This document shows positions 3,292 through 11,771 of a stretch of DNA of 61,816 bases, one piece after another. The number at the start of each line of letters is the position of its first letter. Position 1 is the first letter of the stretch. Source of the stretch: Deltaproteobacteria bacterium (lineage in GTDB: Bacteria; Desulfobacterota; Desulfobacteria; Desulfobacterales; ETH-SRB1); NCBI GenBank assembly GCA_030606805.1, contig JAUWFS010000001.1:1-61816 (forward strand), written 5' to 3'. The notes under the pieces were generated by a model that saw only the letters and a list, made by a program, of their open reading frames with translations, was not told where the DNA came from and ran no database searches. The translations under genes and the position numbers were made by a program.

Positions 3292-3849
3292 ATGGCTGAA
3301 AAGATACCTTATATAACAACTGAATCTGGCGGTCTCCGAGCGTGGGTAGATGGTTATGTGTTAACTGAATATGGTAACTCTGTCTGCTGTTTATCCGTTT
3401 TTGGGGCTATTGGAGCTGTCCAGGCTCTTTGTGCAAGCCTTGTTTCTGGTCGGGACGTTCAGTTGTGGGGAAACGGTGAGTTTGGGACGGAGCTGCATAA
3501 GAAATGGGGCAAGGTCAAATATCGCATGATTTCAAAACGATTGCCGTCAAAGATGTTGAGCATGATAGTACTGATAGATGAAGCTGTTTTATCCCATGAT
3601 CAGGATTTTGTCATTATTAGCAGGGAACATAATCCGGTAGATTTGTTGTATAGAAACTTAATTTACAGGTCAGAGTTACCTTTACATAGCGCATGGAAGA
3701 AGTGGCTTTGGGCAACTTTTGAGTGTTTTGAATGGATGACTAAATTACCGAGTTATAGAATGTGTGGGCATGAGATTTCATTTGATGATGATGAACTGGC
3801 CGAGAAAATCAAGGTTGGAATTAGAAGCGGGAGAATTCCTAAAATATGA
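3292..3849 (+). CDS. hypothetical protein
   Basis: 185 aa. Start is ATG 3292, or GTG 3289. Confidence 0.7.
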   Translation: MAEKIPYITTESGGLRAWVDGYVLTEYGNSVCCLSVFGAIGAVQALCASLVSGRDVQLWGNGEFGTELHKKWGKVKYRMISKRLPSKMLSMIVLIDEAVLSHDQDFVIISREHNPVDLLYRNLIYRSELPLHSAWKKWLWATFECFEWMTKLPSYRMCGHEISFDDDELAEKIKVGIRSGRIPKI

Positions 3850-4559
3850 CTGATGAAGAAATATATTTGGAGAAGGCCAAGAAAAGATTTTGGGCGAAGG
3901 TTAAAAAAAGCAAGGATTTCGATGGTTGCTGGGAATGGGACGGATGGAAAAACCAAAGTGGAGTTGGTCAGTTTTTCTATAATGATAAACCTATGCTACC
4001 ATCTAACTTTATTTGGGAGATTTTTTATGGTGTTATACCGAATGAAAATCGTGTAATGCAGCGGTGTGAAAACATGGGCTGCGTTAGACCAAGTCACCTT
4101 TTTCTTAAAGATGTCAGTTTGGAAACACGATTTTGGTCAAAGGTTAAGAAAGGTGATAGGCATGATGATTGTTGGGAATGGATTGCCTATAAAACAAGAC
4201 ATGGCTATGGGCGATTTAATTTTAATGGTATAATAAATTTAGCACATAGGATTGCATGGGAATTAATACATGGATCTATTCCGGTAGGGATGAATGTTTG
4301 TCATGACTGCGATAACCCTGGTTGTGTTAACCCGGAACACTTGTTTCTTGGAACACAACTCGACAATATGCAAGACTGTGTAAGAAAGGGGAGGTTTTGT
4401 TGCAAGCTGAAAGTAGAAGATGTTGTACAAATTAGGAGAAAATATGCGGCAGGAAATATTTCTCAACGAAAACTTGCAGCACAATATAATATTAGCCATC
4501 AGCACGTTTTAGTAATAGTAAAAAGAATGATCTGGAAAAATATAGATATAATAACTTAA
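3846..4559 (+). CDS. tandem-module HNH endonuclease
   Basis: Degenerate N-module (CENMGCVRPSHLFL), then intact HNH (CHDCDNPGCVNPEHLFLGTQLDNMQD), then an HTH (ISQRKLAAQYNIS). Confidence 0.9.
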   Translation: MTDEEIYLEKAKKRFWAKVKKSKDFDGCWEWDGWKNQSGVGQFFYNDKPMLPSNFIWEIFYGVIPNENRVMQRCENMGCVRPSHLFLKDVSLETRFWSKVKKGDRHDDCWEWIAYKTRHGYGRFNFNGIINLAHRIAWELIHGSIPVGMNVCHDCDNPGCVNPEHLFLGTQLDNMQDCVRKGRFCCKLKVEDVVQIRRKYAAGNISQRKLAAQYNISHQHVLVIVKRMIWKNIDIIT

Positions 4560-4594: not shown

Positions 4595-4771
4595 ATGTCA
4601 ATCAAGAAAGTTCTAATGGAAAGGGATGGAATGACCTCTGATGAAGCAGATGCTGATATTGCGGCTGCAAGGACCGATCTTCACGAGCGGCTTGGTAAAG
4701 GTGAAATGCCGTTTGATGTGTGTGAGGAGTGGTTTGGCTTGGAAGGAGATTATCTGGAAGAGCTGATATAA
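4595..4771 (+). CDS. hypothetical small protein (58 aa, below track cutoff)
   Basis: AGGAGGAATAG SD precedes ATG 4595. Translates to MSIKKVLMERDGMTSDEADADI...GLEGDYLEELI. Confidence 0.55.
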   Translation: MSIKKVLMERDGMTSDEADADIAAARTDLHERLGKGEMPFDVCEEWFGLEGDYLEELI

Positions 4772-4788
4772 CGAAGGAGAGAGGTTTT

Positions 4789-4947
4789 ATGAAAACAATT
4801 ACCATTAAACAATGGGATAGCGCCGGTATTGAACAGCGAGATCGATGGTTGTCTGATGAGGATGTCATGTTAGATGAACAAGGGTATAAAATCTTATGTG
4901 ATAGAACTGACAAGCTGAAAAATCCCGAAGAGGATCAAGATAAATAA
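4789..4947 (+). CDS. hypothetical small protein
   Basis: AAGGAGAGAGG SD precedes ATG 4789. In frame with track ORF 4729..4947. Confidence 0.55.
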   Translation: MKTITIKQWDSAGIEQRDRWLSDEDVMLDEQGYKILCDRTDKLKNPEEDQDK

Positions 4948-5666
4948 TGGCACGATTAGAATCAAAGATTAAGCTTGATATGGATGAGTTGTATTTAGAA
5001 AAGGCCAAAAAGCGATTTTGGGCGAAGGTGAACAAAATTGATGATGGCTGTTGGTTATGGACCGGATATACAAGGGAAGGATATGGAAGATTTTCTTTCA
5101 GAAGAAAACTTGTTAATGCTCATTACTTTGCGTGGGAAATTTTACATGGAACACCAGTGCCTTCTGGCACTGCGCATTTGTTGCGTCAATGCGGCAATAA
5201 ATTATGCGTTAATCCTGACCATATGCTATTGTATCAAAAAACTCAATTAGAACGATTTTGGGAAAAAGTTGAAAAGAAAGAAAACGGGTGCTGGGAGTGG
5301 ACTGCTTATAAGATGAGACTTGGTTATGGAATGTTTACATTTGACAAAATATTTCAGCTTGCGCACAGAATTGCATGGAAAATAACCAACGGGCCGATAC
5401 CAGAAGGGTTAGATGTTTTGCATCGTTGCGATAATCCGCCTTGCTGTAATCCAGATCATCTATTTTTAGGTACTCATAAAGACAATATGCAAGACTGTGT
5501 AAGTAAAGGACGTATATATCGCAAATTGGATGTAGAAGATATTTTGCAGATTAGAAAAAGATATGCTGTTGAAAAAATAACACAAAGGCAACTTGGTGAG
5601 GAATACGGAGTATGCCAAGTTCATATCGGAGATATAATAAGGCGTAAGAAGTGGAGGCACATATAG
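4947..5666 (+). CDS. tandem-module HNH endonuclease (paralog of 3846..4559)
   Basis: Shares the LYLEKAKKRFWAKV start. Degenerate module (CGNKLCVNPDHML), then intact HNH (HRCDNPPCCNPDHLFLGTHKDNMQD), then an HTH. Confidence 0.9.
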   Translation: MARLESKIKLDMDELYLEKAKKRFWAKVNKIDDGCWLWTGYTREGYGRFSFRRKLVNAHYFAWEILHGTPVPSGTAHLLRQCGNKLCVNPDHMLLYQKTQLERFWEKVEKKENGCWEWTAYKMRLGYGMFTFDKIFQLAHRIAWKITNGPIPEGLDVLHRCDNPPCCNPDHLFLGTHKDNMQDCVSKGRIYRKLDVEDILQIRKRYAVEKITQRQLGEEYGVCQVHIGDIIRRKKWRHI

Positions 5667-6686
5667 ATGGCGAGATTAGCAAGCGTAGCAAAAGCAGGAT
5701 TTTTCTCCACACCGCCTGAAATAGTAAAAATGATTAGCTCATTTATTCAGGCAGAGGAACCTGTTGGAAGGCTACTGGACCCGTGTAGTGGAACCGGAGA
5801 TGCTCTTGCTCAGATTGCACATGGATTGCACATGAATGTTAAGACTTTCGGAGTAGAATTAGACAAAGAGAGAGCTATGCAATCTAAGTCTGTATTGACC
5901 AAGGTGGTTGATGGAGACCTGTTCAGAGTACGAGCCAAAAAAGGTTCATTTTCATTCGTCCTTTTAAATCCCCCTTACCATCAAGATCCTGGGGAAAATA
6001 AAAGATTCGAGCATACTTTTCTTACATTTTCAACCCCGTATCTTCAGACTGGTGGAATCTTGGTTTATTTAATACCGCAGAAAAGACTTAGCAAACGCAT
6101 AGCTCGTTACATGAGTTCTTGGTATCAGCAGTTTATTGTTTATCGTTTTCCAGGCAGGAGCTATGAAACCTTCGGGCAACTTGTCTTGTTTGCTATCAAA
6201 AAGTCAAAATCGTTCTTGGATGAAACAGCTTATACCAGGCTAACCGCGGTACCGGAAACTGTCCTTAAAGAATTGTATGCTAAAGAAAAACCTGTTTATA
6301 CAATTCCGAAAAACACAGTTGATGACAAAGCCTTTTACTTTCGTAGCTTAGATCTCAATATGAAAGAGCTACAGCAAGAGGTTGATGATCACGGAGCCTG
6401 GGAACAGGTAAAGCAGATGATGTATCCACCTATGGAAGATGTTAAAGGTAAGGTGCTTATGCCTTTAAGAAAGGGACATTTGGCAATTCTCATTGCGTGT
6501 GGTCTTTGTGACGGTATTCTGGAAAGGGACGGAAAACGTCTTTTGATTAAGGGTGTAGCCAAAAAAGAGCAAATCGTTACGGAGGAGCATGATGGCGAAA
6601 CAGTGATAGAAAAGTCAGTAGACGTTATCAAAATCGGCATAAAATGTCTTGACCTTAAGACCGGAGAGTTAATTAACGTAGAATAA
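5667..6686 (+). CDS. SAM-dependent DNA methyltransferase (N6-A type, gamma motif order)
   Basis: Motif I LDPCSGTGDA is followed by motif IV LLNPPY. Confidence 0.8.
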   Translation: MARLASVAKAGFFSTPPEIVKMISSFIQAEEPVGRLLDPCSGTGDALAQIAHGLHMNVKTFGVELDKERAMQSKSVLTKVVDGDLFRVRAKKGSFSFVLLNPPYHQDPGENKRFEHTFLTFSTPYLQTGGILVYLIPQKRLSKRIARYMSSWYQQFIVYRFPGRSYETFGQLVLFAIKKSKSFLDETAYTRLTAVPETVLKELYAKEKPVYTIPKNTVDDKAFYFRSLDLNMKELQQEVDDHGAWEQVKQMMYPPMEDVKGKVLMPLRKGHLAILIACGLCDGILERDGKRLLIKGVAKKEQIVTEEHDGETVIEKSVDVIKIGIKCLDLKTGELINVE

Positions 6687-8615: not shown

Positions 8616-11600
8616 ATGCAAACAATCAAGCTGACAGAGTTTCTAAAAAAATATCAAAATGAGATAGCGGCGTCGATAATCCGCGATTATCCCCCACTGT
8701 ATCAATTTTCGGCAAGAGATAAGTATGTGTCGGATATAAAGAAGTTACAGAGAAAGCCGTATCTGGCCCAGTTTGACAGTATTAGTGCCTTGGCGGAGCT
8801 ATACTCAAATGAAAATGGTAATTCTGCTATACTTGTTGGTGAGATGGGAGTTGGTAAGACCATTATTGCTATCGGATTGATTTATGTAGCGAAATTTAAA
8901 AAAATACTGATAATGTGCCCGCCGCACCTTGTTAAAAAATGGGAACGAGAGATTAGGCTCACAATCCCGACTGGTTGTGTGGAATGCCACCATTTGAAAA
9001 AATTTACTGATGTTGATCTGACTGTACCCCTGGCAAATGATGACAAGTTCCATTTTTTTATAGTGGGTAGGGAAAGGGCCAAATTGTCGTATCAGTGGAG
9101 GCCGGCATATAACATCAAGCAATACATAGAAACAGAAAATAAAGAGAACGGCGATAGCTCTTCGAGGGTAAAGGTCAAATATATAACCTGCCCTAAATGC
9201 GGGGGTCTTGTCTTGGATGCAGAGGGTATCCCTTTGAGTCCGGATGAGATGAAAAAGAAAAAGATGATCTGTGCCAGATGTGGAGAATTTCTCTGGCAGG
9301 CAAAAGAAACCGGTCCAAGACGATTTGCCATAGCAGAATATATAAAGAGGAAATACAAAGGTTTTTTTGATTTGTTGGTTGTTGATGAATGTTTTCCAGC
9401 AGGGACGAAAGTGAAGACAATTGATGGAGAAAGGAATATAGAACAAATATTGCCAGGCCAGCATGTTTTATCTTATGGTAAGAATGGTTTTGTGTATAAA
9501 CAAGTAACTCGTGTTTTTAAAAGATTGTCGCAAGAAGATTTTACGAAAGTAGAACACGAAGAAGGAATGTTGTTTTCAACTTTAAATCACGAAATTTATA
9601 CCTCGAAAGGTAAAATTGCGGCTGGCCTTCTTAGAAAATCGGATATTATTCAAGTTTTAAGCGAGGAAGGGAGTTATGAGAAAAAGAAGAAAACTGTCGG
9701 AGGAACACAAGCGAAAGATAGGAAAAGCGCAAGAGCTAGCTCAAATCAAAAATCCGGAATTAAGATATGCCACTTCAGCGAGAATGAAGAAAAACAATCC
9801 AACAAAGAATGCGGTTGTTCGACAAAAAATATCGGGTTCTTTAAAAGGAAAGGTCTTTCCAGCCAAAAGAGGTGGCCGTGGAACTGGATTAACAGAACCG
9901 CAAAAATTATTGTCTCAATCGTTGGGTGCAGTATGGGAAACAGAGATAACAGTAAATACGCAAAACGTCCATCATCCTTATCATTATTCTATAGATATTG
10001 CAAACGTATCATTAAAAATAGCTGTAGAATGCGATGGATTTTCGCATTGCCCAATATATGCTCAGGAAAGGGACAAGAGAAAAGATTTAACGCTGCTAAG
10101 ACTCGGATGGATTGTTCTACGATTCAGCAACAAGGAAATTATGGAGAATACAGAAGATGTGGTTCGAAAAATTATAAATTGCGAGGAAAAAAGATCGTCA
10201 GAACTAAAAACGTAAATATTAGACCAATAATAGTTTATAACCTCGAAGTACAAGATACGCACAGATATTTTGCTAACAATGTTTTGGTTGCAAATTGTCA
10301 CGAATATAAAGGAAGGGGGAGCGCACAAGGCTATGCCGCAGGCATTTTGGCTTCGGCCTGCAAGAGATCCCTTGCTATGACCGGAACTTTATTCGGAGGA
10401 TATAGCTCCACCCTATTCCATTTATTATACCGTTTATCATCAACGTTCAAGAAAGATTATGAGTATTCTCAAGTATCAAAATGGATTGATCACTATGGAA
10501 TATGGGAGAGAGTAACTAAGTTTAATGATGATGCTTATGGTGATAATATCCAAAGTAGAGGTCGTAAATATAGGTATGCACCCCGCGAAAAACCAGGAAT
10601 TTCGCCAGTGATCCTGCCAAAGTATCTTTTGGATAAGACTGTTTTTGTCAGACTTAGCGATATCGCTATAGATCTTCCTTCTTTGAGTGAGGAAATTATT
10701 GATGTTCAGATGTCCGAAGAGCAGACTGAAGCATATGATGAACTGTATGGTCAATTAAGAGGGGCCTTGCTTGCAGAATTACAGCGTGGGAATAAGTCCC
10801 TTCTGGCTGTCTATCTGCAAACATTATTAACTTATCCTGATCGGTGCACGGTTGGAGAACAGGTTTATAACAAAGATGAACAATTGATAGCTACTGCGCC
10901 GGCATTAAATAGTGATGTTTTGTATCCAAAAGAGCAGGCGATTGTTGATCTAATTAAAAAAGAAAAGGCTAATGGGAGAAGGGTTCTTGTGTATTGTACG
11001 CACACGAATCGTAGAGATGTTACTGCGCGGTTGCAGGAAAAGATTCAGTCGGACGGAAATGATATAAAATCGGAGATACTAAAAGCGAGTGTACCGGCAG
11101 AAAAGAGAGAAGCATGGATTCAGGAACATGCCGAAGATCTGGATTGTCTGATTACCAACTCGGCTCTTGTGCAGACCGGGCTTGATTTGATAGAATTTCC
11201 GACTGTGGCGTACTGTCAGGCGGGGTACTCGGTCTATACTTTAAGGCAGTCGTCTCGCCGGTCTTGGAGAATCGGTCAGGATAAGCCTGTCAAGATATAC
11301 TATTTCGTTTATGCCGCAACAATGCAGGAACAGGCCTTAAAGCTGTTAGCTTTGAAGATGAAAGCGAGCCTGATTATAGAAGGGGAGTTGGGTGAGGATG
11401 GTCTTGCTACGTACAATGTTGGAGATGACAACCTGTTTTATGAACTTGCCCGGAATATTGCTAATAATGTATCGATTGATGAGAGCCTGGATGTTTTATG
11501 GGGAAATGTACAAGAAAAAGAAAAGAAAAGTGCGGCTGACGATTTGTTAATTGAATCCCTTGATGATTATGAAGACAAGCCGGATCTTAATGGTGCGTTA

Positions 11601-11771
11601 AAAAGGCCGGTAATTGAAATAAAACAAAAATACAATCCTGAAATTTGGGATAAACTGTATAATATGATGTTACAAGATAGAGGAAGAAAGCAGGACTTGA
11701 AACGGAAACGACGAGAAAAAAGAGAAAAGATATTACCCTCTGATCGTCATCAACAGATGGGGTTATTTTAG
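8616..11771 (+). CDS. SNF2/DEAD-like helicase precursor interrupted by an intein
   Basis: Walker A GEMGVGKT. The DExH box is split as LLVVDE|C...N|CHEYKG. C-terminal helicase motifs LVQTGLDL and RQSSRRSWRIGQ. Confidence 0.9.
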   Translation: MQTIKLTEFLKKYQNEIAASIIRDYPPLYQFSARDKYVSDIKKLQRKPYLAQFDSISALAELYSNENGNSAILVGEMGVGKTIIAIGLIYVAKFKKILIMCPPHLVKKWEREIRLTIPTGCVECHHLKKFTDVDLTVPLANDDKFHFFIVGRERAKLSYQWRPAYNIKQYIETENKENGDSSSRVKVKYITCPKCGGLVLDAEGIPLSPDEMKKKKMICARCGEFLWQAKETGPRRFAIAEYIKRKYKGFFDLLVVDECFPAGTKVKTIDGERNIEQILPGQHVLSYGKNGFVYKQVTRVFKRLSQEDFTKVEHEEGMLFSTLNHEIYTSKGKIAAGLLRKSDIIQVLSEEGSYEKKKKTVGGTQAKDRKSARASSNQKSGIKICHFSENEEKQSNKECGCSTKNIGFFKRKGLSSQKRWPWNWINRTAKIIVSIVGCSMGNRDNSKYAKRPSSLSLFYRYCKRIIKNSCRMRWIFALPNICSGKGQEKRFNAAKTRMDCSTIQQQGNYGEYRRCGSKNYKLRGKKIVRTKNVNIRPIIVYNLEVQDTHRYFANNVLVANCHEYKGRGSAQGYAAGILASACKRSLAMTGTLFGGYSSTLFHLLYRLSSTFKKDYEYSQVSKWIDHYGIWERVTKFNDDAYGDNIQSRGRKYRYAPREKPGISPVILPKYLLDKTVFVRLSDIAIDLPSLSEEIIDVQMSEEQTEAYDELYGQLRGALLAELQRGNKSLLAVYLQTLLTYPDRCTVGEQVYNKDEQLIATAPALNSDVLYPKEQAIVDLIKKEKANGRRVLVYCTHTNRRDVTARLQEKIQSDGNDIKSEILKASVPAEKREAWIQEHAEDLDCLITNSALVQTGLDLIEFPTVAYCQAGYSVYTLRQSSRRSWRIGQDKPVKIYYFVYAATMQEQALKLLALKMKASLIIEGELGEDGLATYNVGDDNLFYELARNIANNVSIDESLDVLWGNVQEKEKKSAADDLLIESLDDYEDKPDLNGALKRPVIEIKQKYNPEIWDKLYNMMLQDRGRKQDLKRKRREKREKILPSDRHQQMGLF
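9390..10295 (+). mobile_element. intein (Hint domain) inserted in helicase motif II
   Basis: Cys1 at 9390 (CFPAGTKVKTIDG) and block B TLNHEIYT. The C-terminal VYNLEVQDTHRYFANNVLVAN is followed by a +1 Cys at 10296. Confidence 0.85.
9676..10215 (+). CDS. nested homing endonuclease (NUMOD3 motifs + Vsr/DUF559-like PD-(D/E)xK), +1 frame inside the intein
   Basis: SD-like GAGGAAGGGAG sits just upstream of ATG 9676. Motifs LSEEHKRKIGKA and VRQKISGSLKG, plus core YSIDIA..KIAVECDG..RD..KD..LGWIVLRF. Confidence 0.8.
   Translation: MRKRRKLSEEHKRKIGKAQELAQIKNPELRYATSARMKKNNPTKNAVVRQKISGSLKGKVFPAKRGGRGTGLTEPQKLLSQSLGAVWETEITVNTQNVHHPYHYSIDIANVSLKIAVECDGFSHCPIYAQERDKRKDLTLLRLGWIVLRFSNKEIMENTEDVVRKIINCEEKRSSELKT

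Follow-up and report, generated by a model that had tools for sequence, protein, structure and literature searches.

A Vsr-like endonuclease gene nested in the +1 frame of a helicase DExH-box intein from a tailed phage, and its family

Out-of-frame endonuclease genes within inteins are, as a kind, already published. Gosselin, Arsenault and Gogarten (bioRxiv 10.1101/2025.01.02.630785), who credit Gorbalenya (1998) with the first out-of-frame case, described actinophage inteins carrying antisense LAGLIDADG genes, antisense VSR-like genes, or same-strand endonuclease VII-like genes in frame 3, the last of these in polymerase, capsid, terminase and thymidylate synthase genes. According to the same authors, VSR-like endonucleases in inteins had been known only from split inteins. 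A later preprint by Phillips, DeSimone and Gogarten (bioRxiv 10.64898/2026.09.14.751524) reported a +2-frame LAGLIDADG gene in a cyanobacterial dnaX intein, and both Gogarten-lab preprints (2025, 2026) describe out-of-frame inteins as rare. Here we analyse an intein in the helicase gene of a 61,816-nt stretch of DNA (contig JAUWFS010000001.1 of assembly GCA_030606805.1, Deltaproteobacteria bacterium; the whole stretch is hereafter called the window), inside which a Vsr-like/DUF559 endonuclease gene lies on the same strand in the +1 frame. As in the published cases, the splicing blocks flank a complete endonuclease open reading frame (ORF) that does not share the frame of the host, the host frame stays open, and purifying selection acts on the endonuclease frame and not on the host frame, the frame-specific pattern of nonsynonymous to synonymous substitution ratios (dN/dS) being the same as in the dnaX intein; invasion of a mini-intein by a free-standing endonuclease gene has been proposed there as well. 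However, we note that the combination of endonuclease type, strand and frame differs, that the insertion site is the DE/CH Walker B motif of superfamily 2 (SF2) helicases and related ATPases (a slash marks the junction, here and below), and that the layout, called rare elsewhere, is here the majority state of a clade.

Other described systems resemble the locus in part. In the fractured genes of Dassa et al. (2009; PMC2677866), a Vsr-like or GIY-YIG endonuclease gene lies between split-intein halves. These share with the window the Vsr-like endonuclease, in which a DNA-binding region at the N-terminus precedes a C-terminal nuclease, the setting in phage DNA-metabolism genes, and the overlap of the endonuclease 3' end with the downstream intein coding region. 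However, fractured genes consist of two ORFs with their own stop and start, whose products trans-splice, whereas the continuous host frame here implies cis-splicing; moreover, their hosts (gp41, IMPDH, DnaE, NrdA/J, ligase and terminase) do not include SF2 helicases. For the nuclease itself, the nearest described proteins are the DUF559 protein 3HRL and the EDxHD homing endonucleases, with the prototype I-Bth0305I (Taylor et al. 2011; PMC3239194; PDB 3R3P), both of which show the same catalytic-domain fold, profile similarity, and acidic and histidine active-site positions; I-Bth0305I also has the same order of N-terminal DNA-binding and C-terminal nuclease parts. It is, however, encoded in a recA group I intron and uses NUMOD2/helix-turn-helix repeats, whereas the window protein has at most a weak NUMOD3 and is closer in sequence to 3HRL. 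Lastly, the ShiLan-type system (Arsenault et al. 2025; PMC11855218) is a hidden HNH endonuclease nested out of frame within the DNA methylase gene of a phage, and there too the host gene's frame is stop-free across the insert. However, no intein or splicing element was detected in that case and the insert is thought to be retained as a loop of the mature protein, whereas clear Hint halves flank the insert in the window.

In the searchable literature we found no report of a same-strand Vsr-like gene nested in a contiguous intein, no report of this DExH-box helicase intein family, and nothing to show that nesting of this sort may prevail within a clade of endonucleases or that so large a family exists. 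An earlier, sequence-only reading of the window had implied that the arrangement was unique, which is incorrect, since out-of-frame endonuclease genes in inteins are already published and the +1 layout turns out to be common.

We consider it likely that the window holds a mobile, cis-splicing intein in the helicase DExH box, which carries a separately translated Vsr-like/DUF559 (EDxHD-related) gene on the same strand in the +1 frame. The host ORF reads LLVVDE/CFPAGTKVKTIDG...YFANNVLVAN/CHEYKG across the insert, which makes up host residues 259–560 and splits motif II of the helicase exactly between DE and CH. The first inserted residue is Cys259 of the host protein, i.e., the N-terminal nucleophile; block B is TLNH, within LFSTLNHEIYT, so that the TxxH motif is present; and the C-terminus VLVAN/C provides the terminal Asn and the +1 Cys. 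Without the intein, close homologs (about 746 residues, 70–88% identity) read VVDE/CHEYKG, and the insert boundaries are therefore exact. At the nucleotide level, a collinear intein-less phage contig (L171; 67–85% nucleotide identity across the neighbourhood) carries the empty allele ...gttgttgatgaa/tgccatgaatat... (in a shorter form, GTTGTTGATGAA/TGCCATGAATATAAAGG), and its alignment to the window stops precisely at 9391/10296. The PT-HINT profile matches the host-frame insert at 37.8 bits (cut-off 27.7). Once its middle is deleted, the insert can be aligned over its whole length with solved mini-inteins and with intein-like Hint domains (E values of 1e-4 to 1e-5), including Mtu RecA (1e-4), bacterial intein-like domains (1e-5), gp41-1 and DnaX. 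In the AlphaFold2 (AF2) model of the precursor, the Hint halves are folded and beta-rich, at residues 264–352 and 519–558, with a predicted local distance difference test score (pLDDT) of 58–90 in the N-terminal half.

The nested ORF encodes a protein that is matched by DUF559 at E 4e-13, above the cut-off, over residues 102–168. Its AF2 model, based on 119 homologs, has a mean pLDDT of 92.5 and comprises a helical N-terminal region and a C-terminal alpha/beta core. The best Foldseek matches in the PDB are the DUF559 protein 3HRL (TMt 0.79) and the I-Bth0305I catalytic domain 3R3P (TMt 0.70), both with probability 1.0, and a comparison of the family profile with PDB sequences gives 3hrl at 8.6e-13 and 3r3p at 1.5e-4; among viral structures, the matches are DUF559, VSR and homing endonucleases. 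Residues D107, E118, D120, H124 and D133 are invariant among the 119 homologs. The 3r3p profile alignment spans the IE.(D/N)G...D.(R/K)K...G..V block, and by our own residue-by-residue reading of this alignment the five invariant residues appear to correspond to the composite EDxHD/Vsr active site of I-Bth0305I. At the N-terminus, NUMOD3 gives one match, to residues 5–19, at 16.5 bits against a cut-off of 20.4, where the sequence-only reading had seen two NUMOD3-like motifs, which are thus weakly supported; the helical prediction for this region is of high confidence. PF07460 is present in four homologs, and many relatives have an extra N-terminal Zn-ribbon.

Across the overlap, the host frame contains no stop, whereas shuffles among synonymous codons, which leave the +1 protein unchanged, contain 9.1 stops on average, and none of the 20,000 shuffles is free of them; in the third frame there are 17. 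A stop in the host frame arises when an endonuclease codon ends in T and is followed by a codon starting with AA, AG or GA. None of the 62 codons at such positions (at-risk codons) ends in T, compared with 41 of 116 elsewhere (Fisher p = 2e-9). The three frames were then compared with two relatives sharing the element, L006 (helicase 89% identical) and L007 (endonuclease 62% identical). Over the overlap, dN/dS against L006 and L007, respectively, is 0.23 and 0.15 in the endonuclease frame, 1.00 and 0.94 in the host frame, and 0.79 and 1.10 in the third, non-coding frame; over the N-terminal splicing half, the host-frame values are 0.19 and 0.22. The gaps among the three sequences measure 3 and 6 nt, and both frames are therefore preserved. 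The host frame is thus held open by selection against stops and is not conserved as a protein, and we hold the +1 ORF to be a real, selected gene. An open host frame that is unconstrained at the protein level is the signature expected if read-through is needed only to join the Hint halves on one chain.

The host-frame product of the overlap also lacks the features of a folded domain. In the precursor model this linker (residues 353–517) has a pLDDT of about 25 and nearly no secondary structure, domain and PHROG profile searches of it gave no significant family match, and its lysine, arginine and serine (K+R+S) content is 34.5%, versus 20.7% in the exteins. The exception is the 3' end, where a strand at residues 519–533, predicted with high pLDDT, falls inside the overlap; the last 15 or so endonuclease codons overlap this Hint strand, and about 45 nt are therefore truly dual-coding.

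Much of this had been anticipated by the sequence-only reading, which placed an intein with Cys1, TLNH, a terminal Asn and a +1 Cys in the DExH box, a 179-residue ORF with a Vsr/DUF559-type core in its +1 frame, and a K/R/S-rich host-frame middle without domain character, kept free of stops by selection. These features are all present at the positions that it gave, and its interpretation is supported. The intein stands on the motifs, the PT-HINT match and the exact gap against intein-less alleles (both the homologs at 70–88% identity and L171); the ORF and its core on dN/dS, DUF559, the I-Bth0305I-like fold and the five invariant positions; and the selected read-through on the shuffles and on the composition and missing family matches of the middle. 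Profile searches of both frames place Hint in the host frame and DUF559 in the +1 frame, with no in-frame endonuclease homology in the middle of the insert.

Based on these results, we propose the following course of events. The nested gene occupies what would be the usual endonuclease insertion point of a Hint domain. Ribosomes translating the helicase would read through the whole insert, turning about 165 overlap codons into a disordered, unconstrained, K/R/S-rich linker, around which the N- and C-terminal Hint halves would fold and splice in cis, restoring ...VVDE-CHEY.... The endonuclease would be made separately, most likely by internal initiation at the ATG at 9676. It would then cut intein-less alleles at or near GTTGTTGATGAA/TGYCAYGAATAT, and repair would copy in the whole composite element, which would in this way home into DE/CH sites; that the DE/CH junction is the cleavage site is our inference. 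A single stop in the host frame would cut the helicase short, which would limit the endonuclease gene to codons that make none. The sequence-only reading had suggested that a free-standing-type endonuclease gene colonised a mini-intein, and stand-alone homologs with many stops in the host-equivalent frame, such as L009, which adjoins a helicase gene, fit an origin of this kind. The coordinates of all parts are collected in Table 1.

Table 1. Parts of the helicase, intein and nested endonuclease in the window (positions in the 61,816-nt stretch)
Feature	Coordinates	Strand	Details
Precursor ORF of SF2/SNF2-type phage DNA helicase	8616..11771	+	1051 aa, continuous through the intein; ORF list, Pfam, PHROG
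5' half of presumed homing site	9378..9389	+	GTTGTTGATGAA, encodes VVDE (Walker B / motif II)
Intein	9390..10295	+	302 codons in host frame, Cys1...Asn302; then +1 Cys at 10296..10298
N-terminal splicing half of Hint domain	9390..9674	+	Blocks A and B including TLNH; host-frame dN/dS 0.19-0.22
Shine-Dalgarno-like GAGGAAGGGAG upstream of endonuclease ATG	9663..9673	+	Read from sequence; putative function
Host-frame read-through linker	9675..10169	+	Host aa 354-518; stop-free, no protein-level constraint
Nested homing-endonuclease gene	9676..10215	+	+1 frame relative to host; 179 aa plus stop
Endonuclease N-terminal helical region, putative DNA-binding part	9676..9924	+	aa 1-83; AF2 helices 9-25, 27-39, 46-56, 74-83
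Endonuclease catalytic core	9928..10212	+	aa 85-179; Vsr-like PD-(D/E)xK-derived fold
Dual-coding stretch	10170..10215	+	Endonuclease C-terminal helix and first C-terminal Hint strand; both frames probably structured
C-terminal splicing region	10216..10295	+	Blocks F and G: IIVYNLEVQDTHRYFANNVLVAN; strands 538-558 in precursor model
3' half of presumed homing site	10296..10307	+	TGTCACGAATAT, encodes CHEY; +1 Cys = splicing nucleophile, restores DE-CH

The window element is one well-preserved member of a family. A pattern scan of viral contigs with the single sequence returned just five distant partial relatives, and deposited phages gave no blastn match to the helicase gene. When viral and metagenome contigs were scanned on the basis of alignments, 165 loci with a same-strand homolog emerged; database homologs number 395 at E <= 1e-5. 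Same-strand +1-frame nesting occurs at 141 of the 165 loci, always with the same frame relation, and in these the host-equivalent frame is without a stop across the endonuclease ORF and open for hundreds of codons on either side, whereas the remaining frame is closed in every case (median 20 stops). The remaining 24 loci include 22 with stops (3–25 in the homologous region, 5–76 over a wider ORF guess), namely, two in-frame inteins (L133 and L140), one in-frame fusion of the endonuclease to an N-terminal helicase fragment with no Hint match (L154), and 19 stand-alone genes or fragments; the last two loci, L014 and L095, are stop-free over the endonuclease with a frame break upstream. The codon pattern of the window holds throughout the family: the 115 nested genes left by dereplication at 95% identity comprise 16,553 codons, and of the 5,127 at-risk codons among these none ends in T, compared with 244 of 879 in the 22 non-nested homologs. 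Likewise, the endonuclease frame is the more constrained one, under purifying selection, in 25 of 25 independent family pairs, with a median uncorrected ratio of nonsynonymous to synonymous differences (pN/pS) of 0.41, versus 1.15 in the host frame and 1.11 in the third.

The flanks of the nested genes are those of inteins. Hidden Markov models (HMMs) detect an upstream N-intein at 133 of 142 nested loci, with Cys as the first residue in 129 of the 133, and a downstream C-intein at 134 of 142; among ten representative hosts, Pfam Intein_splicing matches nine, eight of them above the cut-off. Both junctions, the C-junctions located by HMM, could be mapped in 97 non-redundant loci, of which 91 have DE/C as the N-junction and 75 regain DECH in the spliced product, with C-junctions of the types HN/C, SN/C and HN/S. 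The endonuclease stop lies a median of 15 residues (range 3–30) before the C-junction. The hosts fall into 28 clusters, which comprise DEAD/ResIII helicases, SNF2-type helicases resembling that of the window, a helicase-methylase fusion (Helicase_C + N6_N4_Mtase) and clamp-loader-like AAA+ proteins. As regards co-evolution of intein and endonuclease as a unit, pairwise identities of the endonuclease correlate modestly with those of the N-intein (rho 0.41) and with those of the exteins (rho 0.29–0.36), and there is only one candidate extein switch.

Homologs occur in 40 deposited phage genomes (37 Vibrio, two Corynebacterium and one Pseudomonas). The nested +1-frame gene lies unannotated inside an annotated helicase/P-loop NTPase coding sequence (CDS) in Vibrio phage 159E43-1b (L172; OZ196825.1, 29049-31577) and Vibrio phage 1.088.O (L173; MG592463.1, 44535-47237), both of which have DE/CFPAGT...VHN/CHH junctions and no at-risk codon ending in T. 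These plaque-isolated Vibrio phages carry the layout in the sole annotated helicase CDS at the locus, and their viability lends splicing some support, though only indirectly. Related records name the CDS over the nested gene 'coil containing protein' or 'hypothetical protein'.

Several observations weigh against the proposed element. The penultimate intein residue (10290..10295, host residues 559–560) is Ala rather than the common His, and this could slow the C-terminal cleavage step of splicing. The closest relatives (L006, L007 and L010) have Ser there and the majority of the family has His, CH-type junctions being preceded by AN once, SN 19 times and HN 55 times. A minority of active inteins lack the penultimate His. 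Pfam Intein_splicing falls below the cut-off for the window's insert, as does Hint_2. For the family, the absence of T among the 5,127 at-risk codons is partly circular, 'nested' being defined by zero stops; independent support comes from the bimodal stop counts (zero, or three or more where the sequences match), from the shuffles, and from the Hint and extein sequences on either side. As for expression, the Shine-Dalgarno (SD)-like motif noted by the sequence-only reading is indeed present, but it is only partly kept in L006 and L007, and as family-wide evidence it is weak: an SD of at least four bases precedes the first ATG in 22% of the family versus 10% in the background, a modest excess, and choosing the best among several candidate starts biases such a test by multiple testing. 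Sigma-70-like sites, which would point to an internal promoter, occur at chance (9 found, 9.2 expected). Finally, the architecture, the exact boundaries, the empty allele, the selection pattern, the fold assignments and the recurrence in at least 115 non-redundant loci are shown by the analysis, whereas protein splicing, independent translation, cleavage specificity and ongoing homing are deduced from sequence and models rather than from experiment.

The weak, inconsistent SD-like motifs and the lack of a promoter signal would also suit an endonuclease that is not independently initiated, with a programmed +1 frameshift or termination-reinitiation coupling giving an N-extein–N-intein–endonuclease fusion or a coupled product; the region around the endonuclease start is A-rich (GAGAAAAAGAAGAAAA), and in L014 the N-extein, N-intein and endonuclease run in one continuous frame. 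However, the window, L006 and L007 all keep an ATG that is displaced from the homologous position by one codon at most, the stand-alone homologs are ordinary genes with their own starts, and a frameshift product would stop at the end of the endonuclease and so waste the helicase, while L014 is equally explicable by a one-base indel or a sequencing error. We regard this account as unlikely, although it is the most credible of the alternatives. Less probable still is the fractured-gene arrangement of Dassa et al. (2009), i.e., two helicase polypeptides joined by trans-splicing of split-intein halves around a free-standing endonuclease gene. The endonuclease superfamily, its place between intein halves and the phage setting are the same, and 15 of the Dassa loci likewise have the 3' end of the endonuclease gene running into the sequence that encodes the C-terminal intein part. 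Yet no host-frame stop interrupts the insert of the window or of 140 other loci, an absence that is actively maintained, no conserved start codon for a C-terminal half is seen, and gene callers and depositors annotate a single CDS; membership in the fractured genes was rejected on the absence of stops.

The state of the nested frame speaks to a further pair of readings. Homing-cycle theory predicts that an endonuclease decays after fixation, and the window intein has lost the penultimate His, so that the +1 ORF might be a decaying remnant and the element now an immobile mini-intein with a junk linker. However, the +1 frame is under strong purifying selection in every comparison, all five catalytic positions are intact and invariant in a confidently predicted fold, and intein-plus and intein-minus alleles coexist among close relatives, which leaves this reading very little probability. 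We give just as little to the converse, that both overlap frames are functional, with the K/R/S-rich host segment having its own role, for example in nucleic-acid binding or in the control of splicing. Such a role would account for the basic, biased composition and for the constant retention of the segment, and the short stretch at the 3' end is really dual-coding; however, host-frame dN/dS near 1 is indistinguishable from that of the non-coding third frame, the linker has very low pLDDT and no family match, and its composition follows mechanically from the endonuclease codon content. Two other explanations of the insert were rejected. A group I or group II intron is not indicated, as a permissive Rfam search of 9000..10700 gave only a chance snoRNA match (E 0.65), and a sequencing or assembly frameshift would not explain why 141 independent contigs, drawn from many samples, share one frame relation, with gaps between relatives in multiples of three.

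Returning to the cis-splicing intein with its separately translated endonuclease, we tentatively extend this reading to the family, though with somewhat less than even confidence. In the extended reading, +1 nesting would be a long-lived, preferred state of a Vsr-like clade, a single composite module having spread among at least 28 P-loop NTPase families via the DE/CH Walker B codons and diversified to about 33% endonuclease identity, while hundreds of overlapping codons were kept stop-free purely via codon choice. If true, few natural families of phage genes that overlap at length on the same strand would be as large, and the family would directly connect, in evolutionary terms, free-standing endonuclease genes with fractured genes and with canonical in-frame inteins, each of which occurs among its relatives. 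Out-of-frame endonuclease inteins bear on how inteins gain endonucleases (the 'splicing first' model), and the window together with more than 100 non-redundant relatives indicates that the layout can be dominant and evolutionarily stable for an endonuclease clade. The family also provides a clean natural case in which selection on one frame, over a long overlap, acts against stops and nothing else, useful to overlapping-gene theory and as a benchmark for gene finders. The cultured Vibrio phages with unannotated nested genes make splicing, internal initiation and homing directly testable, and intein halves that tolerate a disordered insert of about 165 residues, or endonucleases that target a near-universal ATPase motif, may interest protein engineers.

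Some relatives depart from the common layout. In the canonical in-frame inteins of L133 (1310-3820; Ga0180436_10000063) and L140 (569-3166; Ga0070685_10002278), Intein_splicing and DUF559 lie in one ORF of a UvrD-type, superfamily 1 (SF1) helicase, with many stops in the other frames; such in-frame VSR-like intein endonucleases may also be unreported. In L014 (1799-4059), a single frame encodes a fusion of the N-extein (ResIII), the N-terminal Hint half and the endonuclease, and the C-terminal Hint half and C-extein run in the other frame, which remains without stops throughout the endonuclease. L095 (1958-3996) has a similar upstream frame break; the presumed one-base indel was sought there by fixed-window alignment to L022, in which the windows aligned poorly. 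Both loci could owe their form to a one-base indel of recent date or to a sequencing error, or could be intermediates on the way to a fractured or an in-frame arrangement. Besides the DExH-box element, further inteins are present in the hosts of L127, L036, L012, L088, L030 and L078, mostly at or near the Walker A P-loop; the extra intein of L036 has an in-frame HNH_3 match, and in L078 a further Hint domain lies close to the C-terminal methylase part.

The copy of the element in L006 (2554-5992; GCA_048634185.1, JAIWAU010000114.1) is an 89%-identical helicase–intein–endonuclease with a different, longer C-terminus. It is followed on its 3' side by cellular-looking genes (OGG/HhH-GPD glycosylase, NMT1/OpuAC-like, primase small subunit) and not by the phage genes of the window, which could reflect a prophage or metagenome-assembled genome context, a recombination breakpoint, or a chimeric contig. 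In the intein-less contig L171, an IS605 OrfB/TnpB-like gene (4631-5467) lies just upstream of the helicase, and no such ORF is found at the matching place in the window.

The window itself is a tailed-phage genome, encoding a portal protein, a major head protein, SbcCD-like nucleases and a DUF6094 methyltransferase, with almost all genes on one strand. Two stand-alone HNH_3/His-Me finger endonuclease genes (3846..4559 and 4947..5666) lie just 5' of the DUF6094 methyltransferase gene (5667..6686), less than 5 kb from the helicase, so that several homing-endonuclease-like genes are present in one phage; in some helicase homologs (e.g., P0044 and P0090), DUF6094 is fused to the helicase. The 1051-residue host protein, which also appears in a public protein collection (P0001), matches SNF2-rel_dom, Helicase_C and ResIII in Pfam and PHROG 62, DNA helicase. 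Its N-terminal domain contains a CxxC...CxxC zinc-ribbon insert (CPKCGG...CARCGE; 9189..9284, host residues 192–222); one source labels a homolog 'ribosomal protein S27AE / Zn-ribbon', and the four cysteines C192, C195, C219 and C222 are kept in relatives.

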